This document shows, piece after piece, positions 3,080-22,748 of a stretch of 64,000 nucleotides of DNA. Each line of letters starts with the position of its first letter. Positions within the stretch are counted from its first letter, which is position 1. Under the pieces are notes generated by a model. The model had not been told where the DNA came from, ran no database searches, and worked only from the letters and a program-made list of their open reading frames with translations. Both the position numbers and the translations under genes were made by a program. This stretch comes from an uncultured Candidatus Saccharibacteria bacterium. Its GTDB lineage: Bacteria; Patescibacteriota; Saccharimonadia; Saccharimonadales; CAIOMD01. The stretch covers positions 192,830-256,829 of the forward strand of contig OY970318.1 in the NCBI GenBank assembly GCA_963716565.1. Reading direction: 5' to 3'.

Positions 3080-5122
3080 ATGTGGTCTATGTTAACGTCA
3101 TTAAAAGAACTCAGCGGTGTAGGTGATAAAGTTGCCGAGCAACTTGGTAGTGCTGGCCTAGAGACAATAAATGATCTAGTCGCCTACTTCCCTCGTAAAT
3201 ACGACGACTATTCTAACGTTAGCCAAGTAAAAGATATTCGCCCCGGGCTGGTTACTATAAAGGTTAAATTCCAAGGTGTTCGCGAAAGGCGTGCTCGTCG
3301 TGGTTTATCTATTACCGAAGCTGACGCTGTTGATTCGAGCGGCGCTGTAAGAGTAATTTGGTTTAACCAGCCCTACAGGGCCAATTCTATTAAAGCCGAT
3401 AAAACTTATTTTTTAAGTGGTGAATTTGTTTTGCAAAGGCAACGATTACAAATTGTTAACCCCGCCGTAGAATTAGACGATACGGCCGAAACGTCACAAA
3501 CGGCTAGGATTTTACCCACCTATCGTGAAACGGCCAATATTAGCTCGGTTTTAATCCGTAAACTAATGGTTCAGGTAGTGCCGGTTATACAAAAGTTGCC
3601 AGAAACTTTGCCTGACTGGGCTATAAAAGAATATGAGCTAATATCGTACGCTGATGCTTTGCGGGCCATCCACTTGCCCAGTAGCTCCCAGGAACTAGAG
3701 GCTGCCAAAAAGCGCCTAGGCTTCGAAGAATTATTCGTGCTAATTATGGCCACCAAACTCTTAAAAGAGCAAAACCTTAAAGTTAAGGCCATACCAATCA
3801 ACTTTGATTTAGCAGTGGCCAAGAAATTCGTTGCCAATTTGCCGTTTAAATTAACTGACGCCCAACGCAAAACCATCTGGCAAATCTATAAAGATATCGA
3901 TTCTGCCGAGCCCATGAACCGCTTGGTAGAAGGTGATGTTGGTTCTGGCAAAACCGTGGTGGCAGCTATGGCTGGTCTAATGGTGGCTAACGCTGATTTA
4001 CAGGTGGCCTTTATTGCGCCCACCCAGTTGTTAGCCCAGCAGCATGCCGATACCATCGCTCAGCTTTTGGCGCACTCACCGCTTAAAAGCAAGGTTGCCT
4101 TGCTATCTGGTGTAGTCAAAACAAAAGGCAAAACCGCCATCAAACAACGCTTGGCTAATAACGAAATCAGCATTTTAATTGGTACCCATGCTTTGTTACA
4201 AGAAAGCCTAGATTGGCACAAGCTTGGGCTAATTATTATTGACGAGCAACATCGCTTTGGCGTAGAACAGCGCCAAAAACTGTTCGCTAAAGCCGGCCAC
4301 ATGCCTCATGTACTTTGTTTAACTGCTACGCCAATTCCGCGCAGCTTAGCTTTAACGGTTTACGGTGAGTTAGATGTAAGCATCTTAGACCAGGCGCCAA
4401 GAATTCGGGCTGGCGTAGAAACCTCAATTGTATCGCCCAATTCTAAGGCCCAGATGTTTGAGGCGGTCCAGGAGCAGCTTAAAAAAGGCCACCAGGTCTA
4501 CGTGGTTTGCCCGTTAATTAGCGAAAGTGAAGTATTGCAAGCCGCTAGCGCCGAAAAGGTTTATGAAGGGTTCAGGAATAAAGAATTCAAGAACTGGCGC
4601 GTTGGTTTATTGCACGGCCGGCTAAAACCAGATGAAAAAGACAAAATAATGGCCGACTTTAAAGATCACAAAATAGATGTTCTAGTTTCTACAACAGTTA
4701 TAGAAGTTGGCGTGGACGTGCCCAATGCTACCGTTATGATAATTGAAGACGCTGATAGGTTCGGCTTAGCTCAATTACATCAGTTGCGGGGCCGAGTTGG
4801 CCGAGCCCAACACAAGGGCCACTGCTACTTAGTCATGAGCGATTCTAAGGGCCCATCTAAGCGCATGCAAGCCATTGCTAGCACTAATAATGGCTTTGAA
4901 TTAGCCGAACTAGATTTAGAAATCCGTGGCCCGGGAGCCATTTATGGCATCTTACAACACGGTGCGTTAGACTTAAGAATTGCTAAATTAACAGATACCC
5001 AACTCATTGGCCAAGTACGCGCAGCCGTAAAGCAATTTATGAGTCGGGGCGAAAAGCTGGTAGAATATAAGCAAATTTACGTCAAAGTAAAAGTAGCTAG
5101 CAAACTAACATATCTTAATTAA
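3080..5122 (+). CDS. recG: ATP-dependent DNA helicase RecG
   Basis: 680-aa intact ORF. It has a wedge-domain N-terminus, Walker A (GDVGSGKT), DEQH box, TATPIPR and QLHQLRGRVGR motifs. Confidence 0.9.
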   Translation: MWSMLTSLKELSGVGDKVAEQLGSAGLETINDLVAYFPRKYDDYSNVSQVKDIRPGLVTIKVKFQGVRERRARRGLSITEADAVDSSGAVRVIWFNQPYRANSIKADKTYFLSGEFVLQRQRLQIVNPAVELDDTAETSQTARILPTYRETANISSVLIRKLMVQVVPVIQKLPETLPDWAIKEYELISYADALRAIHLPSSSQELEAAKKRLGFEELFVLIMATKLLKEQNLKVKAIPINFDLAVAKKFVANLPFKLTDAQRKTIWQIYKDIDSAEPMNRLVEGDVGSGKTVVAAMAGLMVANADLQVAFIAPTQLLAQQHADTIAQLLAHSPLKSKVALLSGVVKTKGKTAIKQRLANNEISILIGTHALLQESLDWHKLGLIIIDEQHRFGVEQRQKLFAKAGHMPHVLCLTATPIPRSLALTVYGELDVSILDQAPRIRAGVETSIVSPNSKAQMFEAVQEQLKKGHQVYVVCPLISESEVLQAASAEKVYEGFRNKEFKNWRVGLLHGRLKPDEKDKIMADFKDHKIDVLVSTTVIEVGVDVPNATVMIIEDADRFGLAQLHQLRGRVGRAQHKGHCYLVMSDSKGPSKRMQAIASTNNGFELAELDLEIRGPGAIYGILQHGALDLRIAKLTDTQLIGQVRAAVKQFMSRGEKLVEYKQIYVKVKVASKLTYLN

Positions 5123-5141
5123 TTTTGGAGTAAAGCAATCG

Positions 5142-5939
5142 ATGTATAGTCGGGTAATTTTAGGTTCGCATCAAAAGATAGACAGGATGAGTCGGCAGGC
5201 TTTAAGTAGCTTTTTGCTAGATCAAACTGCCTTTCCATCAAAAAAGATGATTCTAAAAAACGAGGGCAAAAATGGCCCAGATGGTATGCAGCATAGATTT
5301 GCAGAGGAACTCGATACTTGGCACTACTACGATCCATTCGACCCAGAAGACGGCCGTTTATTAGATATCATTAAGAATCACTATGATGACTTGGTTAAGA
5401 ACTTAAAGTCTGGCAATAAAAAGAAATCAGCTTTTGACGCCGCTTGGTTGGGGCATGCTTTATTGGATGGCATGACGCCGTCGCATCACTATCCGTTAGA
5501 AAAAGAGCTAGAAGAAATCCGCGGCGAAGCCAAAGAAACCAGAACCACTAGGCTAAAAAGGGTCTTAGTAAAGGGTGAAAACAAGCGGCAGACTATAATA
5601 AAGAATTGGCAAATGTGGGGTGTAAAAGGCTTGTTTTCTACCCATTTTGCCTTCGAAGGTGGGCTGGCCACCATTTACGCAACTCTGCCAAAACGCATAG
5701 CCTACCCTAATAAGTACGAGCTAAAAACCATAAAGCTGGTGGGTTTAATTGATTTTTATAAGCGTGTGGCCCGCGAAGTCGCCATGTTAGAAATGTATGA
5801 CGAATTCTATCAAAAGGGTTGGACCAGCCGTTTGGCCAAAGTTGCCAAAACCGAACTGGCCCCAAGGATGGCCGCCATGACAACCCTAGCTTGGTATTTG
5901 GCCGCTTTCGAAGCCGGCATCCCCACCCAAGAGCTATAA
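5142..5939 (+). CDS. Hypothetical protein (weak resemblance to the zinc-dependent phospholipase C / S1-P1 nuclease fold)
   Basis: 265-aa ORF in host-like GC. The only motif-level hint is LGHALLDGMTPSHH. A hairpin at 5947-5970 follows the stop. Confidence 0.45.
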   Translation: MYSRVILGSHQKIDRMSRQALSSFLLDQTAFPSKKMILKNEGKNGPDGMQHRFAEELDTWHYYDPFDPEDGRLLDIIKNHYDDLVKNLKSGNKKKSAFDAAWLGHALLDGMTPSHHYPLEKELEEIRGEAKETRTTRLKRVLVKGENKRQTIIKNWQMWGVKGLFSTHFAFEGGLATIYATLPKRIAYPNKYELKTIKLVGLIDFYKRVAREVAMLEMYDEFYQKGWTSRLAKVAKTELAPRMAAMTTLAWYLAAFEAGIPTQEL

Positions 5940-5975
5940 ACTTTTTCCAACTTTGTTTCGGCAAAGTTGGTCAAA

Positions 5976-6152
5976 CCGACCGGGCGCTGCTCATAAAATT
6001 CTTAAGACCTTGTCAAATGAAACAATGCCTTCAGAACTCCCTTCGGTCGGCTCAAGCTTTTGTTATTTCTTCAAAGAAAAAGCTTGAACAAGCTGAAGGA
6101 CTTTAAATTGTTTATTTGACGGTCTTAAATCAACATATTCGCAGATGCCCGG
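5976..6152. ncRNA. Candidate structured RNA (6S-like rod with central bubble) or MITE-like imperfect palindrome
   Basis: Hand-folded pairing of about 45 bp over 173 nt (details in findings). It lies in a 316-bp non-coding gap. The strand is not determinable from sequence. Confidence 0.3.
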
Positions 6153-6218
6153 ACCCGGTAAACAAGAATTTGTATGAAGTCCCGCCAGTCGGGGGCTTCG
6201 CCATTTTATGGGCATTTC

Positions 6219-6254
6219 TCTAACATCTAACGTCTATCATCTATAATCTAATAT
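6219..6254 (+). repeat. Heptad-array element copy 1 (tctaaca tctaacg tctatca tctataa tctaata)
   Basis: Five consecutive 7-nt units abut the rsmD ATG. The array contains TATAAT at 6242-6247. It is 30/36 identical to copy 2 by my position-by-position count. Confidence 0.7.
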
Positions 6255-6785
6255 ATGAGAATTATTGCTGGTAGATTAGGTGGGTTGCAGTTTGATGCTC
6301 CTAAGGGGCATAAAACGCACCCCATGAGCGAAAAGATGCGTGGAGCATTATTCAACGTGCTTGGCGATATTGATGGCTTAACCGTTTTTGATGCTTACGG
6401 TGGCAGCGGTGCGATGGCTTTTGAGGCAGTCAGCCGTGGTGCTAGTGTCGTGAAAGTTTGTGAAATAGATAAAGATGCTGTTAGGGTTATTGCCCAAAAT
6501 GTGAAACATCTAAACATTTCACAAGGGGTGAGATTAATTAAGCATAGCTCAGCAATATGGGTAGAAGCCAACCCTACTGAGCGGTTTGATCTAGTAATTT
6601 GTGATCCGCCCTACAACGACATTAAAAAATCTCAGCTGCAAACATTAAGTAAGGCTGTTAAACCGCAAGGTTTGCTAATACTTTCTTTGCCACCCCAGTA
6701 TGAGCAGCTAGATTTTGATGGCTTTAAATTAGAATTAAAAAAGAGCTATGGTGATAGCTCCCTTACGATTTATCGAAAAAGTTAG
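6255..6785 (+). CDS. rsmD: 16S rRNA (guanine966-N2)-methyltransferase RsmD
   Basis: 176 aa. It starts MRIIAGRLGG, carries a SAM-binding FDAYGGSGAMAFEAVSRGA segment and a DPPY catalytic motif. Confidence 0.85.
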   Translation: MRIIAGRLGGLQFDAPKGHKTHPMSEKMRGALFNVLGDIDGLTVFDAYGGSGAMAFEAVSRGASVVKVCEIDKDAVRVIAQNVKHLNISQGVRLIKHSSAIWVEANPTERFDLVICDPPYNDIKKSQLQTLSKAVKPQGLLILSLPPQYEQLDFDGFKLELKKSYGDSSLTIYRKS

Positions 6786-6863
6786 TTTTGCGAGGAGGAT
6801 GTTTGCCGCGGGGGCGGGTAAGCAATGTTGCTCACCCGCCACGTGCGTTGAGGATTCTGTTGT

Positions 6864-7208
6864 TTACTCGATCTCGACCTCTTCGGCCGCGGCTACTGCT
6901 TTGACCTCTTCGGCCACTTCCTCATAGATATCGGCAACAAGCAGGGCAAGGCCGGGTTCGAGCGTTCGCCAGGCATTGATGGTGATTTCTAGGCAGTTAT
7001 TCCATCGAGATACCACCGTTGCGTTGGGCAACTCTCTCTTCGTTCGAAGCTCCGTACAAAGACGTCTGTCGAGTCGGGACAGGAGATCGTCCGCCAACTC
7101 TCGCGTTGGCACGTATCCTACGCAGATGGACTTGCGCCGTATAGGCCTGAACATCTTGTTTAGGAACTCGTAAAGACCCCTCCAGTAAACGACCACGAAT
7201 ATGTTCAA
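6864..7208 (-). CDS. Hypothetical protein on a high-GC single-gene cassette (acidic C-terminus)
   Basis: I trimmed the track ORF 6864..7310 to an in-frame TTG at 7208, which lies 9 nt downstream of AGGAGG. An extended -10-like TGTTATTAT lies upstream on the minus strand (within 7280-7293). A GC hairpin at 6813-6840 lies downstream. No family was recognised. Confidence 0.45.
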   Translation of the reverse strand: MNIFVVVYWRGLYEFLNKMFRPIRRKSICVGYVPTRELADDLLSRLDRRLCTELRTKRELPNATVVSRWNNCLEITINAWRTLEPGLALLVADIYEEVAEEVKAVAAAEEVEIE

Positions 7209-7356
7209 AGTCCCTTTCCTCCTCGCATTGTTTTCGCCCACAGGGGCGAGACTACTTCTCAACTGATGAAAAGCTAGCAATATAATAACATATAATGGCA
7301 AAATAGGCAATTGTACATATAATCTGTTTTTGCTATACTCTAGCTGTTCATCACGA

Positions 7357-7440
7357 GCGCGAGTGGTGGAATGGTAGACACGCTAGCCTTAGGAGCTAGT
7401 GCCGCAAGGCGTGAAGGTTCAAGTCCTTTCTCGCGCACCA
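7357..7440 (+). tRNA. tRNA-Leu (anticodon TAG), CCA encoded
   Basis: The acceptor pairs gcgcgag/ctcgcgc. The anticodon arm is ctagc-cttagga-gctag. It has a long variable arm and the T-arm gaagg-ttcaagt-ccttt, and it ends in acca. Confidence 0.9.
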
Positions 7441-7448
7441 AACAAGAG

Positions 7449-7469
7449 CACCCATTTTGGGTGTTTTTG
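7449..7469 (+). terminator. Rho-independent terminator after tRNA-Leu
   Basis: The stem caccca/tgggtg is followed by a T5 run. Confidence 0.6.
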
Positions 7470-7493
7470 TTTGGTCTGTGTGGCAGACTTAAG

Positions 7494-7596
7494 CCTTCAC
7501 GGCGACAGCTTTAGCTGGCGCGGAGTGAAGGTGCATAGAGCGATTAGCGGCAATAGTCGGGCGCGTAGCCCCGACGCTGTCCTTTCTCGCGCACCA
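7494..7596 (+). other. tRNA-Leu 3'-end echo: T-stem and acceptor 3' strand plus CCA, with the T-loop replaced by a 47-nt conserved GC hairpin module
   Basis: gtgaaggt (7525-7532) equals tRNA positions 7411-7418. tcctttctcgcgcacca (7580-7596) equals 7424-7440. The insert at 7533-7579 shares about 37 of about 40 aligned nt with 57875-57920. ccttcac (7494-7500) is complementary to gtgaagg (7525-7531). Confidence 0.6.
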
Positions 7597-7604
7597 AAAT
7601 TATT

Positions 7605-7640
7605 TCTAACAACTAACATCCATCATCTAACATCTAATTT
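7605..7640 (+). repeat. Heptad-array element copy 2 (tctaaca actaaca tccatca tctaaca tctaatt)
   Basis: Five 7-nt units lie directly after the tRNA-Leu echo and just upstream of the tyrS extended -10 (TGTTATTCT, 7642-7650). Confidence 0.7.
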
Positions 7641-7659
7641 GTGTTATTCTAGTTTTAAG

Positions 7660-8916
7660 ATGAAAAATTTAAGTTTGTCCGAAGAATTAAAGTGGCGGGG
7701 GTTTGTTAATCAAACTACCTTTAATGATTTATCGGTACTAGATAAACAAAAATTTACTTTTTATATGGGCTTTGATGCCTCGGCTGATTCACAAGCTGTT
7801 GGCAACCTGGCCGCTATGATGTTTATAAAAACCTTTATTCGCCATGGTAATAAGGCGATTTTAGTAGCCGGTGGCTCCACTAGCTTAGTCGGCGACCCGG
7901 GTGGTAAAGACAGTGAGCGCATTCTGCAAAGCGAAGAAACCATTGCCAGTAATGTTAAAAAGGCCGAAGCTGAGCTTAGAAGAGTTTTTACTGGCTACGA
8001 TTTTAAGCTAGTAAACAATCTAGATTGGACAAAAAACGTTAAGATCCTAGATTTTTTGCGCGACTATGGCAAACATTTTTCTATGACCAATTTGGTACAA
8101 CGGGATTTTATTGCCAAGCGTTTGGGGGCCGAAGGTTCGGGCATCAGTTATGCTGAATTTAGCTATACCATACTACAAGGTTTAGATTATCTATACTTAT
8201 ATGACAATTATGGCTGTACTCTGCAGCTTGGCGGCGCCGACCAATGGGGCAACTGTTTGTCTGGCGTAGAATTAATCCGTCGCTTGCGTAATGCCGAAGC
8301 CAACGTTTTGACCCTGCCGCTAGTTATTAACAAGGCTACCGGTAAAAAGTTTGGCAAAAGCGAAGACGGTGCCGTTTGGCTAAGCGAAGCCAAGACTAGC
8401 GTTTATAAGTTTTACCAATTCTGGCTGAATATCGATGACGAAGGCGTAGAAGGCTATCTAAAAACCTTTACCGAGCTTAATAAAGAGCAAATAAATGACA
8501 TCATGGCTGAGTTTAAGGCCGATCCATCACTAAGAGCAGCCCAAAAGGCCTTAGCCTACGAAGTTACCAAGATGGTACATGGCAAAGACCGAGCCGACAG
8601 TATTAAAAAGATTACAGAAGTACTATTTGGCGGTCGTGAATATGGTGAGCTAACTGCCAAAGACTTTGCCGAGCTTGGTGATGAACTGGGCGTTTACAAT
8701 GCTAAAAAAGGCCAAGAATTGGTTGATGTTTTAGTAGAAGCCAAGTTGGCCAGCAGCAAAGGCGAAGCCAGGCGCTTTTTAGAAAGCAATGCCATTTACG
8801 TTAACGGCTCGCAAATTCCGCTTGGCAAAACGACCCTAGATAAAGGTGATGCCACTCACGGCTTTGTAGTATTACGTCGTGGCAAAAACGCCCAAGCCAT
8901 CGTTAAGCTTGTTTAG
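7660..8916 (+). CDS. tyrS: Tyrosyl-tRNA synthetase
   Basis: The track ORF 7399..8916 runs through the tRNA and is trimmed to the in-frame ATG at 7660 (MKNLSLSEELKWRGF). It has a KFGKS motif and a C-terminal S4-like domain (GEARRFLESNAIYVNG). Confidence 0.9.
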   Translation: MKNLSLSEELKWRGFVNQTTFNDLSVLDKQKFTFYMGFDASADSQAVGNLAAMMFIKTFIRHGNKAILVAGGSTSLVGDPGGKDSERILQSEETIASNVKKAEAELRRVFTGYDFKLVNNLDWTKNVKILDFLRDYGKHFSMTNLVQRDFIAKRLGAEGSGISYAEFSYTILQGLDYLYLYDNYGCTLQLGGADQWGNCLSGVELIRRLRNAEANVLTLPLVINKATGKKFGKSEDGAVWLSEAKTSVYKFYQFWLNIDDEGVEGYLKTFTELNKEQINDIMAEFKADPSLRAAQKALAYEVTKMVHGKDRADSIKKITEVLFGGREYGELTAKDFAELGDELGVYNAKKGQELVDVLVEAKLASSKGEARRFLESNAIYVNGSQIPLGKTTLDKGDATHGFVVLRRGKNAQAIVKLV

Positions 8917-9024
8917 CCAATCTTTGAGAACAACGGGGTGTGTACACTTACGGGCATTTACTCATTAGTGCTATTATGGTATTATATGTTTTGTCTGTGA
9001 CTCTCAACTGGAGTGGAGGAACTC

Positions 9025-9270
9025 TTGAAAAAAGCGATTAGCACCGTCCTATCAAGGTATGGTAAGGACGATGGCGGCTCTTGCTGCCAGTCTCTCGGTG
9101 GGCGAACCGCCTTCATCAACCACGACAACTATGGACGTATCCTGATGTTCGAGATGGAACTTAGGAGCTTTGGCTTTCGCCCAGACGGGCCGATACTGCC
9201 AAGCGGTGCCTCTGGCACCTACAAGTGGGCAGCTACGTTCAGAAGAAGGCGCCTGTTCTGGCGTCGCTGA
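9025..9270 (+). CDS. Hypothetical small protein on a high-GC cassette (coding status uncertain)
   Basis: GGAGG at 9015-9019 lies 5 nt before an in-frame TTG at 9025; the track ORF starts at GTG 9013. TGGTATTAT (extended -10) is at 8977-8985 and a terminator at 9295-9333. Overlapping ORFs on both strands make the call weak. Confidence 0.3.
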   Translation: MKKAISTVLSRYGKDDGGSCCQSLGGRTAFINHDNYGRILMFEMELRSFGFRPDGPILPSGASGTYKWAATFRRRRLFWRR

Positions 9271-9294
9271 ACAGAGCAAGAGATACAGACAAAC

Positions 9295-9333
9295 GCCCCG
9301 GAGCGCAATCGCGCCCGGGGCATCCTCTTTTTT
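9295..9333 (+). terminator. Rho-independent terminator
   Basis: The stem gccccgg (9295-9301) / ccggggc (9315-9321) is followed by a T-rich tail (ctctttttt). Confidence 0.6.
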
Positions 9334-9368
9334 CTATCGTCCAACGTCCAACATCTATCGTCTAATTT
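9333..9368 (+). repeat. Heptad-array element copy 3 (tctatcg tccaacg tccaaca tctatcg tctaatt)
   Basis: Five 7-nt units, 28/36 identical to copy 2 by my count. The array overlaps the last 13 nt of the minus-strand gene 9355..10032. Confidence 0.65.
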
Positions 9369-10032
9369 GCTGATAAATCAGCGCTGGTAGGCAGAAATAA
9401 ACTATCGATATAACAATGTTCACTACTGTGCCAATAACTGGAATCCACCCAGCAATAGATAAAACGAAGTTTACAACGAACATGGCAAAAACCAAGCGCC
9501 AGTTAGCTTTGGTAAGTCGGAAGCTCTGCTTAATGGCGTCTATAGCCCTAGGCTTTTTATCAACGTAAATATAAACCGCTAGGGTCAAAAAGAACATGGC
9601 CACCAGCCCGGGTATTATTAAAAACACAAAGCCAACCACTGTGATTAGGCCAATAAATGCCGATAGACCAAAAAATGGCAAGGCAATTTTGGATGCTCGT
9701 TTGATTAAATCTGTGAATTCAACCTTTTTGCCTCTAATACTGTCTAGCTGGGCAATAATGATAGCCGGCCACAAAAAGACCATGCTTATAAGCAAAAGCA
9801 GACCCAATACAGATATAGAAACAATGTTTATTACATCAAAATTGCCAGAGGTTAGCACCGGTATAGCTACCAGCCCAATTATCAGCAACAAAATTACCAT
9901 AGGTATTAATACAATTGTTAGAAAAACTGTTAGATTAAGTTTTAGGGCTTCCAAGCAAGGGCGCCACAACCTAAAAACGTCGGCCGTGATGGCAAAAAAA
10001 TCATTTTCTTGGCTGATTTTATAGGTTTTCAT
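9355..10032 (-). CDS. Integral membrane protein, function unknown
   Basis: 225-aa ORF with several long hydrophobic segments and host-like composition. Confidence 0.65.
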   Translation of the reverse strand: MKTYKISQENDFFAITADVFRLWRPCLEALKLNLTVFLTIVLIPMVILLLIIGLVAIPVLTSGNFDVINIVSISVLGLLLLISMVFLWPAIIIAQLDSIRGKKVEFTDLIKRASKIALPFFGLSAFIGLITVVGFVFLIIPGLVAMFFLTLAVYIYVDKKPRAIDAIKQSFRLTKANWRLVFAMFVVNFVLSIAGWIPVIGTVVNIVISIVYFCLPALIYQQIRR

Positions 10033-10106
10033 GATTACCGCTTAATTGAAACATTATTACCTAAATATGGTCAAGGTTAAGCTATAAGTTTATAATTACC
10101 TTAACT

Positions 10107-11393
10107 ATGTCATTAAATACACAACCATATAAAGGAACTAGGGATTTTTACCCCGAGCAAAAACGTCAACAAAACTATATTTTTAAGGTGTGGCGCGAAG
10201 TAGCCGAAAGTTTTGGTTACGAAGAATACGACGCTCCAATAATTGAGCCCCTAGAAATTTATCAGGCCAAAACCAGCGACGAAATTGTAAACGAGCAGAC
10301 CTACGCTTTCGAAGATCGCGGTGGCCGTAAAGTAACTTTAAGGCCCGAAATGACTCCAAGCGTTAGCCGTATGGTAGCCGGCCGCCGCCAGGAGCTAGCT
10401 TACCCATTGCGTTGGTACAGCATCCCGAATTTATGGCGTTATGAACGCCCCCAAAAGGGCCGCTTGCGTGAGCACTGGCAGTTAAATGTGGATTTATTCG
10501 GCGAAGCCGGTATAGAGGCCGACAGCGAACTAATATTGCTATCCGATGCCATAATGCAGCGTTTTGGCGCCCAGCGTGACACTTACGACATAAGAATTAA
10601 CAGCCGTAAATTGGTAGATTATCTATTCAAAGACTACCTAGGTTTGGATGCTGAAGAAACCAAAACCATGGTTAGGCTGTTAGATAAAATGGCCAAAATG
10701 CCCGCCGATGATTTTTGGGCAGCCGTTAACGAAGCGGTTGGCGATAAAGTTAACAAATTGCGCGATTTGTTAGAGGTCAAAGACCTAAAAAATCTACCAG
10801 ATGAAATTCAAAAACTAGATTGCACCGAAAACTTGTATAAGTTAATGATGATTCTAGCCCGAAGCGGCGTTACTAACGCTCGGTTCGACATTTCGCTAAT
10901 GCGTGGTTTTGACTATTACACCGACGTCGTGTTCGAAATCTACGACACTAACCCAGAAAACAGCCGCTCTATGTTTGGTGGCGGGCGCTACGATGGCCTA
11001 GTTGGCCTGTTTGGCGTAGAACCGGTGCCCACAGTTGGTTTTGGTATGGGCGATGTAACATTGCAGAACTTTTTAGAATTGCACGGTTTACTACCCAATT
11101 TTAATAGCCCAGTTAATATTTGCGTAATACTAATCGGCGATGTCTACGAAAAGTCTTTGGATTTACTAGGGCAACTGCGCGAAGCTGGCCTAAATGTAGC
11201 GTTAGACGCCTCACAGCGTAAAATTGATGCCAAATTAAAATCGGCCGTTAAGGCTGGCTACCCCTACATTATGGTAATCGGCGAATCCGAACTACAAAGT
11301 GGTGACTTTAGGCTAAAAGAGCTTGCCAGTGGCCAAGAAAACACTCTTAGGATTGATGAAGTCATTGAAGCCGTAAAAACCCCTAGTAATTAA
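10107..11393 (+). CDS. hisS: Histidyl-tRNA synthetase
   Basis: 428 aa. It has the N-terminal KGTRDFYPE motif, class II motifs (LRPEMTP, RYERPQKGR, GGGRYDGL) and a C-terminal anticodon-binding domain. Confidence 0.92.
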   Translation: MSLNTQPYKGTRDFYPEQKRQQNYIFKVWREVAESFGYEEYDAPIIEPLEIYQAKTSDEIVNEQTYAFEDRGGRKVTLRPEMTPSVSRMVAGRRQELAYPLRWYSIPNLWRYERPQKGRLREHWQLNVDLFGEAGIEADSELILLSDAIMQRFGAQRDTYDIRINSRKLVDYLFKDYLGLDAEETKTMVRLLDKMAKMPADDFWAAVNEAVGDKVNKLRDLLEVKDLKNLPDEIQKLDCTENLYKLMMILARSGVTNARFDISLMRGFDYYTDVVFEIYDTNPENSRSMFGGGRYDGLVGLFGVEPVPTVGFGMGDVTLQNFLELHGLLPNFNSPVNICVILIGDVYEKSLDLLGQLREAGLNVALDASQRKIDAKLKSAVKAGYPYIMVIGESELQSGDFRLKELASGQENTLRIDEVIEAVKTPSN

Positions 11394-13100: not shown

Positions 13101-13193
13101 GCATGTTATAACAAATATGCTATTTGGAGTGTCCAAGGAGCATGTAACTCCCTGTAGAGTGTTAGTCAAAAGTCGAGACAGACGGAGGCAGCA

Positions 13194-13643
13194 ATGGATT
13201 CTAAAGACCAGATAGGCGATGGACTGCCCAGCGGCTTGTCTATCGAGAACCCAGACGTGAGTGGCGTGCCAACGTTGGCAGAAGGCATGGAAAAGTGCGG
13301 CATCTGTTGCCGAGATATGAAAGAAGGCGAAGTCCTTCACCACGGTGAGTACAATGGCCAGTGGGTCAACGCTTGTGATGACTGTGAGCCCGCCCTAGAC
13401 AAGACATGTCACTTGTGTGGCAACGGTTTGTATTTGGGCAAGGCGTTGGTCTGGACCGAAGGAGGTGAGCTTACGCACGTTTGTCATCCGTGTTTGAACA
13501 TCAAGACGGAACAGCTTCGGTGCTACAGCTGTAGAGGGTCATTCGATATGCAGCCGGTGCTCAACTATCCCACCCCGGATGACAAAAGGCTGGCCAGAGG
13601 TCTCTGTACCGACTGTGCCGACAAGCTCGGCGACAAGAACTGA
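13194..13643 (+). CDS. Cys-rich protein with six CxxC pairs (three predicted zinc ribbons)
   Basis: GGAGG lies 6 nt before the ATG. The 149-aa product has 13 Cys arranged as CGIC(C)...CDDC, CHLC...CHPC and CYSC...CTDC. TGTTATAAC (extended -10-like) sits about 80 nt upstream. Confidence 0.6.
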   Translation: MDSKDQIGDGLPSGLSIENPDVSGVPTLAEGMEKCGICCRDMKEGEVLHHGEYNGQWVNACDDCEPALDKTCHLCGNGLYLGKALVWTEGGELTHVCHPCLNIKTEQLRCYSCRGSFDMQPVLNYPTPDDKRLARGLCTDCADKLGDKN

Positions 13644-13771
13644 CCACAGGGGGTTTGGGAGGGCTTCGCAGCCCTCCCAATAACCTCTGAGCTAATTAAA
13701 TGTAGTTATCTCAGAAGTTGTAAATTTATTACTTTGCCTTGGTTATTAAGCTTTAATAGTCAGGGTAAAGA

Positions 13772-13786
13772 GCCATAGAAAGTGCC
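13772..13786. repeat. Left copy of a perfect 15-bp inverted repeat (gccatagaaagtgcc)
   Basis: It is the exact reverse complement of 14441-14455. The pair brackets gene 13859..14338. Confidence 0.7.
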
Positions 13787-13790
13787 ACTA

Positions 13791-13825
13791 GGGCCGCCAG
13801 CGCATATAGCACTGGCGGCCCTTTT
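13791..13825 (+). terminator. Rho-independent terminator (plus strand)
   Basis: A 10-bp stem gggccgccag / ctggcggccc is followed by tttt. Confidence 0.5.
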
Positions 13826-13858
13826 GGTTGTTTGTGATGCCCCAAGCTGTCGGACGGG

Positions 13859-14338
13859 TCAGCTGGCCAAGAATGGACAGCTTTGCCGATCACCGATGAT
13901 AGATGCCGACAGCAGCTCACAATGGCCGTCGTCGTACACCTCAACGACTATTGCCTCCACGATGGTGATGCTGCTTGTGGTGAGGTCCTCCAGCTCGACG
14001 CCGATGTAGACGATGCGCGCCCACAAGTCGGAAACGTAGGCCCTAAGGTCTCGAGCTGCGGCCGAAGCGTTATTGTACGCTCGCTTGGCAATCTGACGCT
14101 GGAAGGTGCAGGATCTGCACAGTCCGTGGTCGGCTTTGCCCATGTTGGAACACCTTGCGGTGATCTCGCGGTACTCGATCTCGGCGTTGCGCGCCAGGCT
14201 CTGTTTCTGCGCCCAGTTCATCAGCAGGGCAAAGCCCTTCCTTGTGCAAAAGACGCGATCGAACAACGACCCAATCAGCCGTGCTCTCTCGAACCGAAGT
14301 GCAGCCGCAGACCTATCTGAATGGTTGGCTTGGAACAT
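13859..14338 (-). CDS. Hypothetical protein (high GC), flanked by a 15-bp inverted repeat
   Basis: I trimmed track ORF 13859..14392 to the ATG at 14338, which is preceded by GGGAGAG. A long leader carries a 15-nt IR hairpin. The product contains a C..(9)..C..C cluster (ARCSNMGKADHGLCRSC). No family was recognised. Confidence 0.5.
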   Translation of the reverse strand: MFQANHSDRSAAALRFERARLIGSLFDRVFCTRKGFALLMNWAQKQSLARNAEIEYREITARCSNMGKADHGLCRSCTFQRQIAKRAYNNASAAARDLRAYVSDLWARIVYIGVELEDLTTSSITIVEAIVVEVYDDGHCELLSASIIGDRQSCPFLAS

Positions 14339-14371
14339 GTGCTTGCTCTCCCTCTGGTAGTGTTTGTGGTT

Positions 14372-14422
14372 TCCCCTAAGGGAAGCTAACAACTTTAAAA
14401 GCGGTCAGCTTTCCTTAGGGGA
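14372..14422 (-). promoter_or_regulatory. Leader hairpin / candidate operator: 15-nt inverted repeat with 1 mismatch and a 21-nt spacer
   Basis: tcccctaagggaagc (14372-14386) pairs with gctttccttagggga (14408-14422). It lies about 35 nt upstream of the ATG at 14338 on the minus strand. Confidence 0.4.
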
Positions 14423-15167: not shown

Positions 15168-15299
15168 TCCAGCAAAATCATAATATTGCCGTTAAGGCAC
15201 AAAAGTGGTAAGGTAGCGACAACATACAAAACCCTAAGCTACACGCTAAGGGTTAGGTAATGTGACTGTTCTTTCACTCATATACGCAGGGGGTGTCGG

Positions 15300-15731
15300 T
15301 TGAACGAGCACAAGCAGGCTAAGACGATTCAAGAAGGAGCGTGGCTTGCCGCTGAAGCATGGCGCCAAAAGATCGAGCTACTGCAGGATCCCACGGTGGA
15401 TACCTACAATGAGTTCGTTCGGCGTTGTTCGCAAGTTGCCGGTGATCTGTGTGGGCTTTGCTATGCGGCAGCTCACATACTAAAGGTAGACCCACCGGGC
15501 AATCGCAAGCGGTGCAAGGTTTGTCCGCTACAGCCTAAATGGCACAAGGTTTGCTCGCTGTGGTTACAGAGGCACTATTGCCACCCGGCAGTAGAGAAGT
15601 TCGTTGGTATCTGCCAGGGTATACACAAAGCCAACCAAGGCGACGACCAAGTGCGGTGGGCTCTAGGCCGGCAAGAGCTGTTAAGGCATGCCATGCAAGC
15701 CAAGGCGGCTATCGAAGCCATCCTGCAGTAG
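15300..15731 (+). CDS. Cys-rich hypothetical protein (8 Cys)
   Basis: A TTG start is preceded by GGGGGTG. The 143-aa product carries C-x8-C-x2-C and C-x2-C clusters. The segment is high GC. Confidence 0.45.
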   Translation: MNEHKQAKTIQEGAWLAAEAWRQKIELLQDPTVDTYNEFVRRCSQVAGDLCGLCYAAAHILKVDPPGNRKRCKVCPLQPKWHKVCSLWLQRHYCHPAVEKFVGICQGIHKANQGDDQVRWALGRQELLRHAMQAKAAIEAILQ

Positions 15732-15890
15732 AGTAAAGAGCGTGCCTTCGCGTGAGGCGCCCAAGTTTGTTGTAAAACAGGGGCGCCCACTCGGAGGCGC
15801 TTCTGTTTTAAAGTGTAAAATACTTTATTTATCGTAGTTATTATGGTTTAGTGTTATTGCGTTGAAAATCCCTACCCGTTTGGAGGCAGT

Positions 15891-16319
15891 GTGGATTGCA
15901 AGGCGTTTGCAACCGAGGTGGTAAAGAGGAAGAAAGAGCTTGCGGGCTTGATGCGCGGGCACAGCAAGAACCAGGCGGCGATATGGCTTCAGGTTCGCAA
16001 GGTGCTCCAGGAGCTCGGCGAGGTATACCCAGAGGCCGTCCAGGCGGATTCGTATCGGCATATGGCCGAGCGAGGGTACTGGATGTTGCGCTTTGACACT
16101 CACGGTAACGAACAGCTGATGGTCGATCTGACCACTGGTGACATAGCCGTGATGGGTGCTCTCGAGAAAGACTGGCCAGACTTCATCATCGGGCTGGGCC
16201 CAGACGACCTCAATGCCGGCAAGGAGCTGGAAATCCAGCGGAAGTTGCTTGCCGACTATAAGGGTTGTGCGGCCACCAAGCCCAAGGGCGACGGCCGCCG
16301 GCTTACTACGGCGAGGTAA
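15891..16319 (+). CDS. Hypothetical protein
   Basis: A GTG start lies 4 nt after GGAGG (15882-15886). The double-hairpin terminator at 16352-16414 follows in the same orientation. The antisense ORF 15825..16331 lacks an SD. Confidence 0.5.
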   Translation: MDCKAFATEVVKRKKELAGLMRGHSKNQAAIWLQVRKVLQELGEVYPEAVQADSYRHMAERGYWMLRFDTHGNEQLMVDLTTGDIAVMGALEKDWPDFIIGLGPDDLNAGKELEIQRKLLADYKGCAATKPKGDGRRLTTAR

Positions 16320-16351
16320 GGCTCGCAACACTGGTGCAGACGCTTCAACGT

Positions 16352-16414
16352 GGGGGGCGGGGCTTTAATAGCCCGCCCCCATAGCAGCAGACCCCTAACG
16401 GGTCTTTTTCTTTT
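16352..16414 (+). terminator. Double-hairpin terminator T1 (conserved GC hairpin plus a U-tailed hairpin)
   Basis: The sequence ggggcggggctttaatagcccgcccc is followed by gaccc-ctaac-gggtc-ttttt. The 26-nt first hairpin differs at 1 nt from the one at 18155-18180. Confidence 0.65.
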
Positions 16415-16491
16415 ATAAGCCTTTATTAAATACTACAAATATGTTATTATATGGCCTCCTACGAGAGACTAAACACCCTTGGAGGTGCACC

Positions 16492-17541
16492 TTGCTACCT
16501 ATAAAACTACCTGTAGAAGTCATTATATTGCCTACCGTTCAATGCCATCGTGGCTGTGCTTTCTGCGGAATGGATTCAACCTGTAAAGGTATCCACATGC
16601 GAAAGACATGGATTCCGATGGTCATCGAACAGATCGTCGAGCTCGGCGATGTTTGTAAGAGTGTCTTTGTATCTGGACTCGGGGAGCCACTAGAATATCC
16701 GTGGCTACTTGAACTGATGCAGGGGCTCCTACAAACACAAGCCGGCAACATCTCGTTTATGACGTCCGGCTGTAAGAACCAGAAGGAGATAGGCTACGAC
16801 AACCTTGTCGCCCTGTCACAGCTTCGCGATCCCAGGGTTAACCCCACAATCAGCATTAGCAACGTTCACCCGTGGGTATCCATACAGAGGATGCGCTTTA
16901 GCGTACCGTTCCTTGAGCAGATATCCACGCAGATCAACGTCAAGCTGATCGACGGGAAATACCCAAGGAAGCCAACAAGGCTAGCAATCGCTGCTTTGCT
17001 GTACTGGTCGCTATGCAAGCTGGGCTATAGCGAATACTTGCCGAAAGAAGAGATGGCTAAGTTGCCCGAAGAGCACCAAAAGCGACTGAAGTCGGAGATG
17101 CAAAGGCAAGGCCTCTTGCTCAAGAACGCCAGGATCGAGGCCGACGAAGACGGATTCGCAATCTATCCTAGCCACCTGATGACTTACATGGTCAGGAGCA
17201 TGATCAGGGTTGGAAGGGCCATAGACTATTTGGACCTTCCTCGAGAAGGCGGGACGTTTGGTAAGAATCCGATTTGTTCTGTTTTTGATGGAAGCTGTGA
17301 GCATCGCTTGCTGTACATCCATGCGGACGGCCGGATCTTCCCCTGCGACTGCGTAGGCTGGGACGACAAGATGTCCCTAGGCCACATCAGTGACATATCT
17401 CTTAAGGAAGCACTCGAACTTCGAGAGCCTCTTTTAGAGAAGGCCTTCGGCAACTACATCGCTAGCCCTGCGATTCTGCCCGACAGATTCAGGTGTACTC
17501 GGTGCTGTACGCAGTGGCCCGAGAAGCAGTACAACATATGA
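16492..17541 (+). CDS. Radical SAM enzyme with a SPASM/twitch-type C-terminal Cys domain (peptide/protein-modifying maturase family)
   Basis: I trimmed the ORF to TTG 16492, which lies 6 nt after GGAGG. It has CHRGCAFC (CxxxCxxC) near the N-terminus, a GLGEPL (GGEP-like) motif and a C-terminal C-x10-G-x4-C (CEHRLLYIHADGRIFPC) followed by CTRCC. Confidence 0.75.
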   Translation: MLPIKLPVEVIILPTVQCHRGCAFCGMDSTCKGIHMRKTWIPMVIEQIVELGDVCKSVFVSGLGEPLEYPWLLELMQGLLQTQAGNISFMTSGCKNQKEIGYDNLVALSQLRDPRVNPTISISNVHPWVSIQRMRFSVPFLEQISTQINVKLIDGKYPRKPTRLAIAALLYWSLCKLGYSEYLPKEEMAKLPEEHQKRLKSEMQRQGLLLKNARIEADEDGFAIYPSHLMTYMVRSMIRVGRAIDYLDLPREGGTFGKNPICSVFDGSCEHRLLYIHADGRIFPCDCVGWDDKMSLGHISDISLKEALELREPLLEKAFGNYIASPAILPDRFRCTRCCTQWPEKQYNI

Positions 17542-17626
17542 AGCAAGGTGCTTACGGCCCCCGAAAGCTCGAAAGAGCTCGACGGGGCCGTTTGCCATTT
17601 TATGGGTAAATTTATTGGGCACAGAA

Positions 17627-17654
17627 TTGAATAAAGCGGATATTCTGTTATAAT
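17627..17654 (+). promoter_or_regulatory. Near-consensus sigma70-type promoter with extended -10
   Basis: TTGAAT (17627-17632), a 16-nt spacer ending in TGT, and TATAAT (17649-17654). It lies 37 nt upstream of the ATG at 17691. Confidence 0.5.
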
Positions 17655-17690
17655 ATGCGTAATCTGACAAGATCGAACGCGGAGGTTGTT

Positions 17691-18128
17691 ATGTTCTGGG
17701 GTTGGCGTAAGGTACAAGACCTTGAAGGGCTTGTGCGAGCGGCAAAGAAGAAGGGCGTAACTCTCATCACGGTGCAGGCTGGCTTGGAGTCGCCGGGAGG
17801 GGACGATAACCCCGCAGATCCGTGTGAGGTTCCAGGCGAGTATCGCATCTTCTTGGTGTACTCTCTTGGGTACAAGAAGAGGTGGAAGTTGTACAACGAA
17901 CACATCTTCACCTTCTTCGTGGACGACGAGGCAAATTTCAGCTGCGATGAGTGCCAGCAGTGGAGCATCAAGGCCTTGATGACTGTTAAGGCGCGAGTAG
18001 ATGAGCTCAGCCGTCAGCTGCCGGGAGTCGACATCGAGTTCTGGTACGAGGATGAGCCGGTGACTCCAGAGCTAGTCAAAGAGATGTGCCTCGAGGCCGA
18101 ACGGCTTGAGGTGGTAGCCGACGCCTGA
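17691..18128 (+). CDS. Hypothetical protein
   Basis: I trimmed track ORF 17655..18128 to the ATG at 17691, which lies 6 nt after GGAGG. Terminator T2 follows. Two antisense track ORFs overlap it and are judged spurious. Confidence 0.5.
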   Translation: MFWGWRKVQDLEGLVRAAKKKGVTLITVQAGLESPGGDDNPADPCEVPGEYRIFLVYSLGYKKRWKLYNEHIFTFFVDDEANFSCDECQQWSIKALMTVKARVDELSRQLPGVDIEFWYEDEPVTPELVKEMCLEAERLEVVADA

Positions 18129-18151
18129 CGGCTAAGGATCTGTCAGATCAT

Positions 18152-18209
18152 GGAGGGGCGGGGCTTTAATAGCCTGCCCCTCCGACCGAAGACCTACAAG
18201 GTCTTTTTT
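18152..18209 (+). terminator. Double-hairpin terminator T2 (paralog of T1)
   Basis: The sequence ggaggggcggggctttaatagcctgcccctcc is followed by agacc-tacaa-ggtct-ttttt. Confidence 0.65.
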
Positions 18210-18241
18210 GTTTGTTCAAAGACAAGATGAATAAAAGCTTA

Positions 18242-18275
18242 TAAAAAATCCCGCTTATCGTAGTAGCTAGCGGGA
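18242..18275 (-). terminator. Rho-independent terminator for the minus-strand gene 18323..18697
   Basis: The stem tcccgc/gcggga is followed by a T-run on the minus strand (plus-strand A-run at 18243-18248). Confidence 0.55.
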
Positions 18276-18322
18276 ACGCCGGGTTTGCACCGGAGCGAGT
18301 AATCCTCGCTGGTTGGGGGGCT

Positions 18323-18697
18323 CTAGGCCGGCTGCGGCGGCAGCCATACGGCGTGCTTGCGCAAGCTGATGTCGAAGGCTATATCGCTGTCGTCGCCGCA
18401 GAGTCTGCGGATATGCCAGGCGAAGGCCTCAGACCACTGCTTGAACCGCTTCTTCCTCTTGCGGGTGTGGTGGCCGATCACAGTGATGACCATGTTGTTC
18501 GACAACGAGTCGAGCTTACCGGCCTTCTTGTAGGTCACGGTGACATGGTTGGGATCGAGCAACTCGCCACAGTGCTCTAGAAGCGCCGAATACAGCTGTT
18601 GCTGGATCTTTGGCGTGAGCCACGGGCTGCCGTCATCTGCGTACAGCATCCTTGTGTTCTCCGGGGTGTCCCTGTAAACCACAACGGCCTCGGGCAC
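18323..18697 (-). CDS. Hypothetical protein; speculative tautomerase-superfamily-like (Pro at position 2, two beta-alpha-beta-like halves)
   Basis: I trimmed track ORF 18323..18784 to the in-frame GTG at 18697, which lies 6 nt after GGGAGG. TGTTAAATT (extended -10-like) lies upstream on the minus strand. The fold guess rests only on sequence pattern. Confidence 0.45.
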   Translation of the reverse strand: MPEAVVVYRDTPENTRMLYADDGSPWLTPKIQQQLYSALLEHCGELLDPNHVTVTYKKAGKLDSLSNNMVITVIGHHTRKRKKRFKQWSEAFAWHIRRLCGDDSDIAFDISLRKHAVWLPPQPA

Positions 18698-18896
18698 GAA
18701 GCACCTCCCTGTATAGTCCTCGGCATAACCGAGGTTTTGCCGAAAAACAGAGCATAATTTAACATAAAAAAAGCTAATTAGCAAGACTAAGCAAAGCCAA
18801 TATCTGATGTTGTGTCCTATAAGTTGTAAACCCTTATGCTTGCATTAGCGGTCTTTTATTAGTATGAATATTACATTGCAATAAAAGGAGTATTAT

Positions 18897-22079: not shown

Positions 22080-22679
22080 ATGAAAAGTTTCTTAGTTCCC
22101 ACAGTTATCGAAAGCGATGGCCGCGGAGAGCGCGCTTATGATATTTATAGCCGGCTACTTAAAAGTCGCATTATCTTTTTAGGCGAAGAAGTTAACCACC
22201 ACACTGCTAACTTAATAGTGGCCCAAATGTTGTTTTTGGAGTCCGAAGACCCTAAGGCCGACATCACTCTTTATATAAATAGTCCGGGAGGTAGTGTTAA
22301 TGATGGCTTGGCCATTTACGACACCATGCAATTTGTGAAGTGCGATGTTCAGACTATTGGTATTGGATTACAAGCCAGCATGGGCGCCTTTTTACTGAGT
22401 AGCGGCACCAAAGGTAAACGCTTTGTTCTGCCCAACAGCAAGGTGTTAATTCACCAACCATCTAGCGGAATGAAGGGTGTAGTTACCGATATGGAAATCA
22501 CCCTAAAAGAAGTGCTTGATTTAAAGAAGCGACTTAACGAGATATTAGCTAAAAACACCTGCCAGAAGCTAGCTAAAATAGAAGCAGACGTAGAGCGTGA
22601 TTTTTGGATGACCGCCGACGAAGCCGTAAAATACGGCCTAGTCGACGAAGTCATTGGCGCCAAAGTAACCAAAAAATAA
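22080..22679 (+). CDS. clpP: ATP-dependent Clp protease proteolytic subunit
   Basis: 199 aa. It reads VPTVIE...[18 protein letters not shown] and has Ser-His-Asp triad contexts ([13 protein letters not shown]). Confidence 0.93.
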
Positions 22680-22695
22680 GTTTTATAAAAGACAA

Positions 22696-22746
22696 AGGGG
22701 CCTAGCGCGCGGGCGCTGGCCCCTGTGAAGCCCATGTGTGGGCTTC
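22696..22746. terminator. Two GC hairpins between convergent clpP and 22749..23102 (bidirectional terminator region)
   Basis: The hairpins are aggggcc/ggcccct (22696-22724) and gaagccca/tgggcttc (22727-22746). On the minus strand the second hairpin of the pair is followed by a T-rich tail. Confidence 0.55.
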
Positions 22747-22748
22747 TG

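Follow-up and report, generated by a model that had tools for sequence, protein, structure and literature searches.

What is a run of five tandem heptanucleotides doing at the edge of a gene, and does anything read it? The question is raised by a stretch of Saccharibacteria (TM7) DNA (64 kb, 44% GC; hereafter the window) that carries three such arrays, one upstream of rsmD (site 1), one upstream of tyrS (site 2) and one at the 3' end of a gene for a UPF0259-family membrane protein (site 3; Table 1). The element is a cis-element of ~35 bp, composed of four inner heptads of the form T-C-Y-A-N-C-R and a distinct terminal heptad, TCTAATT. It is discrete, polar, conserved in position between species, constrained base by base and independent of the inserts that surround it. 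Judging from the alignments, it lies at the exact border of a core gene and the adjoining variable intergenic zone, within the conserved gene scaffold of the genus. The explanation that we favour, tentatively and at less than even chances, is that it forms a putative platform of duplex DNA on which one sequence-specific protein would bind side by side in a 7-bp register, with an operator or boundary role.

Five-heptad arrays at the borders of core genes

Each of the three copies consists of five contiguous heptads (35 bp) without gaps, and the sequences read exactly as the initial annotation of this DNA had given them. Recomputed identities returned its values for copies 1 and 2 (30/36) and for copies 2 and 3 (28/36), and gave 28/36 for copies 1 and 3. 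Tandem Repeats Finder scored each array as period 7 with 4.7 copies and unit matches of 73-80%, and found no further array of a TCYANCR-type unit in the 64 kb. The pattern TCYAN3 x4 followed by TCTAAT, with at most one mismatch, hit exactly three sites in the window, all on the plus strand, and had no match in 100 dinucleotide-preserving shuffles; independent period-7 scans of the window turned up nothing of the array beyond these copies. The earlier remark that nothing similar occurs elsewhere in the window is borne out by these scans, which, together with the shuffles and the promoter positions at copies 1 and 2, also support the description of the element as reiterated, non-random and promoter-proximal. 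When runs of TC.A heptads were counted on both strands of the window and its congeners (122 kb), single units numbered 3233, runs of two 36 and runs of three 3, while no run had four units and six runs had five. This distribution is bimodal, so the arrays are discrete five-unit elements and not the tail of a chance distribution.

Are the arrays kept in relatives? A TyrS search found loci of 80 Saccharibacteria species, the best at only 67% identity, and a few congeners with TyrS identities of 79-85% were found in the protein database; those compared are designated L081, L082/L083, L084, L205 and L291. They are syntenic with the window, with different small orphan genes in each intergenic space, and the stretch is a hypervariable zone between conserved genes. 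Upstream of tyrS, the array of L205 reads TCTAACG TCCACCG TCTACCA TCTATCG TCTAATT, that of L291 has six units and that of L084 four, and L081 keeps a decayed remnant. The 5' neighbour of this array is an echo of the 3' end of tRNA-Leu in the window and in L205, the terminator of a plus-strand cassette in L291 and a minus-strand cassette in L084; its 3' side is always the conserved tyrS promoter, whichever the 5' neighbour. At site 3, L081 has TCTACCA TCTAACG TCTATCA TCTATCG TCTAATT, L082/L083 have TCCAACG TCTAATG TCTATCG TCTAACG TCTAATT, and L084 has a degenerate version; L205 has just two "units", which encode the C-terminus of the UPF0259 protein (TTACCG TTTGATT). No cassette is present at site 3 of L082, where the 75-bp spacer between tyrS and the UPF0259 gene is made of an AATTTTC heptad array and then the TCYANCR array. 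The array upstream of rsmD was found in the window only, being absent from L081, L082 and L084, and L081 has an extra, reverse-oriented array (4844-4878), from the last unit of which the PLC-like gene takes its TAG stop. At 4/4 independent sites the TCTAATT end is turned toward the core gene and the first heptad toward the variable zone, a polarity with a chance probability of 1/8.

By comparison of these loci, copies 2 and 3 are ancestral in this genus. The fourfold-degenerate sites of tyrS are 41-59% identical between the genomes in question, and a recent local segmental duplication is ruled out because both copies are ancestral to genomes as divergent as this; the case that the initial annotation had set against its own proposal, a local duplication lacking conservation in relatives, thus fails.

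In the same genome pairs the orthologous arrays are 66-86% identical. Over 44 units, C2, Y3 and A4 were each found in 44/44 and T1 in 42/44, position 5 being free; C6 was found in 31/35 and R7 in 33/35 of the inner units, and the terminal unit was TCTAATT in 6/9 arrays. The conserved information amounts to ~9 bits per heptad. Counted by parsimony, the orthologous units outside coding sequence have undergone 23 substitution events, with 0/23 at position 2 or 4 (binomial P = 4e-4) and 2/23 at positions 1, 2 or 4 (P = 4e-4), both of these at position 1; substitutions otherwise fell at positions 3, 5, 6 and 7 only. Length is held as well. Five units are present in 7/9 arrays of the TCYANCR family (one has 6, and one decayed array has 4), and the unit number is 5/5/5 across the orthologues of site 3 and 5/5/6 across those of site 2, a steadiness that argues against ongoing slippage. 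At site 2, moreover, the tyrS promoter is conserved with or without the array, which is added precisely and immediately 5' of it. Since two arrays have been kept in place across species despite heavy neutral divergence, the arrays look functional. They are a discrete element under base-specific selection.

A possible protein-binding platform, or a simple repeat

How might such an element be read? On the platform that we favour, several copies of one protein would bind side by side, one per heptad, in the manner of omega dimers on contiguous heptads. Omega, the ParB of pSM19035, is a ribbon-helix-helix (RHH) protein of which each dimer binds one 7-bp WATCACW repeat; at least two contiguous heptads are required for binding and at least four for full function, and the arrays overlap promoters (PMC9499535). 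The initial annotation had considered a 7-bp period unusual for an operator array, which overlooks this precedent (PMC9499535). Omega sites and TCYANCR arrays are alike in being contiguous, non-palindromic 7-bp repeats without a spacer that occur in both orientations and overlap promoters, and the arrays here contain the at least four contiguous heptads of that system, although their unit is TCYANCR and not WATCACW. They differ further in that omega sites have 7-10 units, belong to Firmicutes plasmids and stand upstream of the binder's own gene, whereas five units are found here, upstream of rsmD or tyrS. The omega system also has a partition ATPase, whereas neither such a gene nor a match to Omega_Repress or RHH was found among the open reading frames (ORFs) of the window and the cassettes.

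What recommends the platform is the ~9 bits per heptad, the fixed length, the polarity, the precise presence or absence of the array and the omega precedent. The protein that would read it, its binding to duplex DNA and an outcome in repression or insulation are putative. At tyrS a bound protein would cover roughly -17 to -52 of the promoter, and at rsmD the entire core promoter, as expected of an operator, and at the 3' end of the UPF0259 gene it might act as a block, with the function of a boundary or roadblock.

Several observations weigh against the platform. Pfam scans of the cassette ORFs, the small window ORFs and the neighbouring genes (64 kb of a 799-kb genome) gave no match to a ribbon-helix-helix, HutP or other DNA- or RNA-binding family. 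The placement relative to the promoter varies, the array overlapping the -10 at site 1, lying upstream of the -10 at site 2 and falling at a gene 3' end at site 3, and there are three copies only in the 64 kb. The decayed arrays at site 2 of L081 and site 3 of L084 indicate that the constraint is not universal, a caveat of ascertainment for the counts above, and TCTAAYN heptamer arrays are common as simple repeats in unrelated metagenome and viral contigs. In the same genus, other heptad families (AATTTTC/TTGAAAA, AAGTWAT and AWATACR) stand at equivalent places, and other Saccharibacteria lineages have still other families; with so many of them, one dedicated protein for each would not be parsimonious. 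A wider proposal takes in this diversity, and we regard it as rather unlikely: Saccharibacteria, and perhaps other bacteria of the candidate phyla radiation (CPR), might encode borders or promoters in general by ~35-bp arrays of ~five heptads, for which an undescribed family of small proteins would be the readers. The unit sequences would then be lineage- or locus-specific and the readers would use a 7-bp (or 7-nt) register; the TCYANCR arrays would form one such set, by which core genes beside hypervariable cassette zones are marked and shielded.

Among the rivals of the platform, the one that survives best is a "long" simple sequence repeat (SSR), that is, a heptanucleotide run born of slippage that has no dedicated reader and persists as intergenic filler after replication slippage. 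Head-to-tail 7-nt units in intergenic DNA above chance are indeed what we observed, and period 7 is specifically enriched in Saccharibacteria loci, where 26 such arrays were found in 1.5 Mb against 0 in shuffles, the counts for periods 8, 9 and 10 being 1, 2 and 0. These arrays are concentrated in L037, L059, L082, L051, the window and L081 and are built of many different units (TCYAAAA, CATGTTG, GGAGTGA/TTCTCCT, GCTATTG, AAGTAAT and TTGAAAA among them). They have four or five units, depending on the criterion, and none has more than six; some form inverted pairs, and the end of others coincides with the -10 of a leaderless gene. The two "units" at site 3 of L205 could even be a seed for array growth. 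In prokaryotes, heptanucleotides are reported to be the most abundant of the long SSRs with units of 5-11 nt, and these are attributed to slippage (Mrazek 2007, as summarised in PMC4679880).

Arrays of the TCYA type are also widespread outside the clade, with at least 120 metagenome and 81 viral stretches matching the pattern, mostly from unrelated organisms and with GC contents from 0.27 to 0.67. Their copy number falls upward (5 units in 104, 6 in 33, 7 in 16 and 8 or more in 23), they are mostly intergenic, and this broad set has no orientation bias toward start codons (19 vs 17 within 10 nt). By tblastn, none of the stretches matching the broad pattern could be assigned to Saccharibacteria. 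As a finder of relatives within the clade the TCYA pattern was therefore set aside as too generic, its matches being mostly to unrelated organisms.

Against slippage as a sufficient account stand the features of the arrays themselves. Their units are imperfect (73-80% match), yet the unit number is constant between species; orthologues in L081, L082 and L205 have five units and that in L291 six, so that the copy-number variation of SSRs between related genomes is not seen. Neutral decay of near-identical units would affect all seven positions evenly, and positions 2 and 4 went without a change. No homogenisation within arrays is visible, every array mixing unit variants, and the terminal unit is distinct and conserved. 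On balance we consider a readerless repeat to be unlikely, though still a serious contender.

Tandem heptanucleotides with other histories bear on this comparison. Cyanobacterial heptanucleotide repeats of the short tandemly repeated repetitive (STRR) class and prokaryotic long SSRs have reportedly been described; like the arrays here they are intergenic tandem heptanucleotides, and many of the metagenome TCYA matches look like members of this class. Their copy number varies and in many cases exceeds five, whereas the length here is fixed and selection acts position by position. In Haemophilus influenzae, 7-bp repeats in the promoters of hmw1A and hmw2A are said to give phase variation. Those repeats and the present arrays are both 7-bp tandem repeats in a promoter region and could influence expression, but the hmw repeats are perfect and change in number by slippage, whereas the units here are imperfect and constant in number between species. 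A third set, the TAACTGA heptamer repeats of marine Beggiatoaceae, Cyanobacteria and Bacteroidetes, is intergenic, with 2-6 copies, sporadic in distribution and without an assigned function, and often stands a few nucleotides before a start codon that lacks a Shine-Dalgarno sequence (MacGregor 2015, PMC4679880). TAACTGA and TCYANCR arrays alike are short intergenic arrays of one heptamer. The former have exact units, variable copy number and 169 sets per genome, against 3 arrays in 64 kb here, and the accessible part of the same source does not report conservation of arrays at orthologous positions between species (PMC4679880). The TCYANCR arrays depart from them in their degenerate units with an invariant core, fixed number of five, distinct end unit, unit sequence and phylum.

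As far as we found, the arrays are a fixed-length, selected variant of the known heptanucleotide-array class and are new for Saccharibacteria; a literature search returned nothing on heptad arrays, or on Rho, in this group, which is weak evidence as the literature covered was limited. Short heptanucleotide arrays from cyanobacteria, Beggiatoaceae and other bacteria have been on record for decades, with no function assigned to them. The comparative evidence given here concerns one heptad family under base-specific purifying selection, its length and its polarity at the borders of genes both being fixed. The phylum in question has tiny genomes, its regulation is little known, and genetic work on it has newly become feasible, with natural transformation and nanoluciferase cassettes to hand (PMC10633639). 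Should a reader protein exist, the arrays would open a way into the control of genes or the insulation of transcription in Saccharibacteria and would serve as a model by which heptamer repeats at large could be tested; if they are inert repeats, they are a minor curiosity.

We also recorded heptad arrays with other units in L037 (51-85, 1259-1293, 5285-5319 and 21054-21129), L059 (347-381, 9960-9994 and 13321-13423), L051 (1073-1107, 6974-7008 and 9795-9829), L082 (1839-1917 and 7827-7861) and L291 (1515-1549). Heptad arrays of unrelated sequence stand as inverted pairs at one and the same position in L059 and L037, after recG and before the PLC-like gene.

Predicted promoters and transcripts at the arrays

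The genes of the region follow one another in the order recG, PLC-like gene, insert, rsmD, a high-GC minus-strand orphan gene, tRNA-Leu, insert, tyrS, cassette, UPF0259 gene and hisS (Table 1). Copy 1 ends 1 nt from the rsmD ATG, and a sigma-70-like promoter lies entirely within it. With 10/12 positions matched it is the joint best such match in the 4.4 kb from 5800 to 10200. The initial annotation had correctly noticed the TATAAT in this copy but had put it 8 nt before the ATG; it lies at 6242-6247 and the spacing is 7 nt, the geometry of a leaderless gene. The start codon itself is supported by a Pfam match that begins at residue 1 and by the conservation of MRIIAG in relatives. Copy 1 by itself thus plausibly forms a complete predicted leaderless promoter of rsmD, with its transcription start placed from this geometry. 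In L084, where no insert is present, rsmD begins 22 bp after the upstream gene, and the array in the window plausibly gave rsmD its promoter once an insert had separated the two.

Copy 2 lies 19 nt upstream of tyrS and, as the initial annotation had it, abuts the -10 of that gene, which takes the form of an extended -10 element conserved in the alignment of relatives both with and without the array. An Rfam scan of 5000-11000 (E <= 1) brought only tRNA-Leu above noise, and a T-box or other known cis-regulatory RNA upstream of tyrS was discarded as an explanation for lack of a covariance-model match. At sites 2 and 3 alike, TTTG and a TATAAT-like hexamer follow directly after the array. Units 4-5 of copy 3 overlap the final 14 nt of the convergent UPF0259 gene, including its last codons and TAG stop, and copy 3 and the 4844-4878 array of L081 are antisense at gene 3' ends.

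Could the array then be no more than a promoter building block, which supplies or reinforces promoters for leaderless core genes that inserts have cut off from their operon? The junctions between units read TANNNT-C, a run of minimal -10-like hexamers, and CTAACA resembles a -35. Copy 1, with its joint top match and its 7 nt to the ATG, and the 22-bp distance of rsmD from the upstream gene in L084 fit this proposal, as do the hexamers after the arrays at sites 2 and 3. Many Saccharibacteria tyrS genes have TAtAcT, 6-8 nt and an ATG, and in L059 and L051 arrays of other units reach into a -10, or stop beside one, shortly before an ATG. The tyrS promoter, however, is conserved and complete in L208 and L082, which have no array there, and in L081, where only a decayed remnant of the array is left, and the units at site 2 offer no usable -35 spacing (12, 19 or 26 nt). 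Copy 3 and the L081 array at 4844-4878 would, as promoters, send antisense transcripts into a core gene, and the invariant C2 plays no part in a -10 element. The proposal is thus good for copy 1 and poor for the other copies, and as a general account we judge it doubtful.

We hold about equally doubtful a reading at the level of RNA, in which the array would be a polar insulator, its unstructured (UCYANCR)5 loading a Rho-like factor, or one with a 7-nt register, that stops read-through. When polymerase heads from the variable zone to the core gene, its RNA always has the sequence of the C-rich, G-poor strand, with 8-11 C and 0-3 G per 35 nt; the plus strand of the array as RNA is predicted to be unpaired, and each copy lies just 3' of a stable hairpin. 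An insulator there would halt read-through into a leaderless gene or antisense transcription into a convergent one, and the polarity holds at 4/4 independent sites, including the reverse-oriented L081 array. In L082 the convergent tyrS and UPF0259 genes are separated by the two heptad arrays only, and no hairpin terminator was seen on reading the 75-bp spacer. Registers of 7 nt are familiar for readers of RNA or single-stranded DNA, since HutP binds UAG-N4 repeats and cold-shock proteins bind heptanucleotides. On the other side, the same polarity at four sites has the one-in-eight chance already given, a rut site does not require ~9 bits per heptad, and intrinsic terminators already stand upstream of the arrays in the window. 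The arrays resemble rut sites in being C-rich, G-poor and predicted to be unstructured, but 35 nt is short for Rho, whose hexamer occupies about 70-80 nt of RNA. A tblastn search with E. coli Rho against Saccharibacteria fragments gave no match and is uninformative. HutP sites in Bacillus are (UAG-N4)3, placed in a 5' leader where they overlap a terminator. The reverse complement of the arrays likewise has UAG (or UGG) at intervals of 7 nt, separated by 4 nt, but at sites 1 and 2 no transcription of that strand is expected, and no HutP-family match was found among the scanned ORFs.

A layout of TATAAT or TATACT, then 6-8 nt, then ATG without a Shine-Dalgarno sequence was also observed at 6242-6257 and 10068-10109 in the window, and a similar one upstream of tyrS in L003, L007, L013, L015 and L037. 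In these Saccharibacteria, mRNAs without a leader appear to be frequent. The cassette genes, unlike the leaderless core genes, have strong GGAGG sites.

Inserts, cassettes and other features of the window

The initial annotation had placed the arrays at the 3' edges of inserts. It is true that an insert precedes every copy in the window, with the conserved 3' module of a cassette family before copy 1, the tRNA-Leu echo before copy 2 and a cassette terminator before copy 3, but the array neither belongs to inserts nor marks them. That the array is part of the cassettes was rejected, since the empty site of L082 keeps its array, four family A cassette ends lack one and the neighbours at site 2 vary; the comparison with a cassette-free allele that had been called for thus speaks against the array as a piece of the insert. 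As a general marker of inserts it fails as well, because four high-GC blocks of the window, with six orphan ORFs, have no heptad array beside them. Likewise, no array follows the four family A cassette ends of L081 and L082. From these alleles, the arrays go with the core scaffold and inserts land beside them, the association reflecting where inserts accumulate and not a property of the inserts.

Table 1. Arrays, genes and inserted elements at the rsmD-tyrS locus, in window coordinates
Feature	Position	Strand	Remarks
recG	3080-5122		
PLC-like hypothetical gene	5142-5939		
Family A 3' hairpin module remnant	6175-6210	+	GGGGCTTCGCCATTT; directly 5' of copy 1; from alignment with four L081/L082 cassette ends
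Copy 1 (site 1)	6219-6254	+	TCTAACA TCTAACG TCTATCA TCTATAA TCTAATA (+T); found in the window genome only
Predicted sigma-70-like promoter	6220-6247	+	CTAACA (6220-6225), 16-nt spacer, TATAAT (6242-6247); entirely within copy 1
rsmD (16S rRNA methyltransferase, Cons_hypoth95)	6255-6785	+	Core gene downstream of copy 1; Pfam
tRNA-Leu(TAG)	7357-7440	+	
Insert from tRNA-Leu to copy 2	7441-7598	+	Conserved in L205; ends in a 20-nt echo (7579-7598 repeating 7423-7442)
Copy 2 (site 2)	7605-7640	+	TCTAACA ACTAACA TCCATCA TCTAACA TCTAATT (+T)
Extended -10 of tyrS	7640-7650	+	TGTGTTATTCT; consensus TTGTGnTATnCT, then 8-9 nt, then ATG; predicted promoter element
tyrS	7660-8916	+	Core gene downstream of copy 2; ATG at 7660
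Family B cassette	8950-9332	+	Own promoter, 85-aa high-GC orphan ORF (9013-9270), terminator hairpin (9295-9320); directly 5' of copy 3
Copy 3 (site 3)	9333-9368	+	TCTATCG TCCAACG TCCAACA TCTATCG TCTAATT (+T)
UPF0259-family membrane protein gene	9355-10032	-	Convergent with tyrS; 3' end inside copy 3

Three alleles of site 3 (window, L084 and L081) have insert ends 0-2 nt from the first heptad, with the cassette on the plus strand in the window and L084 and on the minus strand in L081, and at site 2 three kinds of 5' neighbour likewise stop at the first heptad. Such sharp junctions are as expected if disruption of the array is selected against, in keeping with the platform. They could also suggest a recombination or insertion target of the attI kind, at whose 5' edge a recombinase inserts cassettes, the left junction being variable, the region a hot spot for orphan cassettes whose ends are conserved and site 2 a neighbour of a tRNA-Leu integration scar; but this is very improbable, since cassettes lie in mixed orientation, most cassettes and high-GC inserts are not beside an array, neither the window region nor the loci of relatives yielded an integrase or transposase, an empty site of only 75 bp makes junctions near the array expected anyway, and selection against disruption accounts equally well for their sharpness. 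Integron attI/attC systems share with this locus a fixed site where unrelated small gene cassettes gather. They differ from it in that neither an integrase (in the window region and L081-L084) nor an imperfect attC palindrome is present, that the cassettes have their own promoters and terminators, lie in both orientations and are mostly without an array, and that the conserved cassette ends are terminator hairpins and not the array.

The cassettes themselves are small orphan genes in which conserved non-coding ends surround unrelated ORFs (L081 4900-6620, L082 1920-3500 and L084 11240-11680), and Pfam gave no match for any cassette ORF. Family A has a 5' end formed by a promoter and a 5' untranslated region (..CCAGACTAGCAA..GGAGG) and, as its 3' end, the hairpin module GGGGCTTCGCCATTT. 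In family B, ATTATATGTTTTGTCTGTG forms the 5' end and ATACAGACAAA, with a hairpin GCCCCGGAG..GCGCCCGGGGC, the 3' end, and the two are partly complementary to each other; those of the window cassette are common to a cassette of L084 with a different ORF. Ahead of copy 1, the insert includes a long imperfect hairpin at 6002-6129 (~128 nt, -42.8 kcal/mol, z = -5.2 vs shuffles), which could be an element resembling a miniature inverted-repeat transposable element (MITE) or a small RNA. The echo of the tRNA-Leu 3' end lies ~140 bp past the tRNA in the window; L082 has two echoes (5870-6115), and L205 also carries an echo (1-200). This looks like an old, repeatedly used integration site that has been reduced to scars. 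Four blocks with at least 55% GC (13172-14390, 15273-16443, 17285-18764 and 22631-23055), which hold orphan ORFs without a Pfam match, are probably further non-core inserts.

Elsewhere in the window, rpoB and rpoC (23395-30756) are apparently split into ~nine ORFs and are intact in L082 (1064 and 1272 aa), which suggests frameshift errors of assembly, L084 being similarly fragmented, or pseudogenes. At ~5120-5170, two other assemblies (ERR12035938 and ERR15459710) with an identical RecG have contigs that end 46 nt after recG, a hint of strain-level variation or of a repeat just downstream. Finally, a 9-bp tandem repeat (TGATTACTC / GATTATTCC) of up to 5.6 copies occupies 37228-37287, in the 3' part of the ORF at 36302-37312, and presumably encodes a tripeptide repeat.

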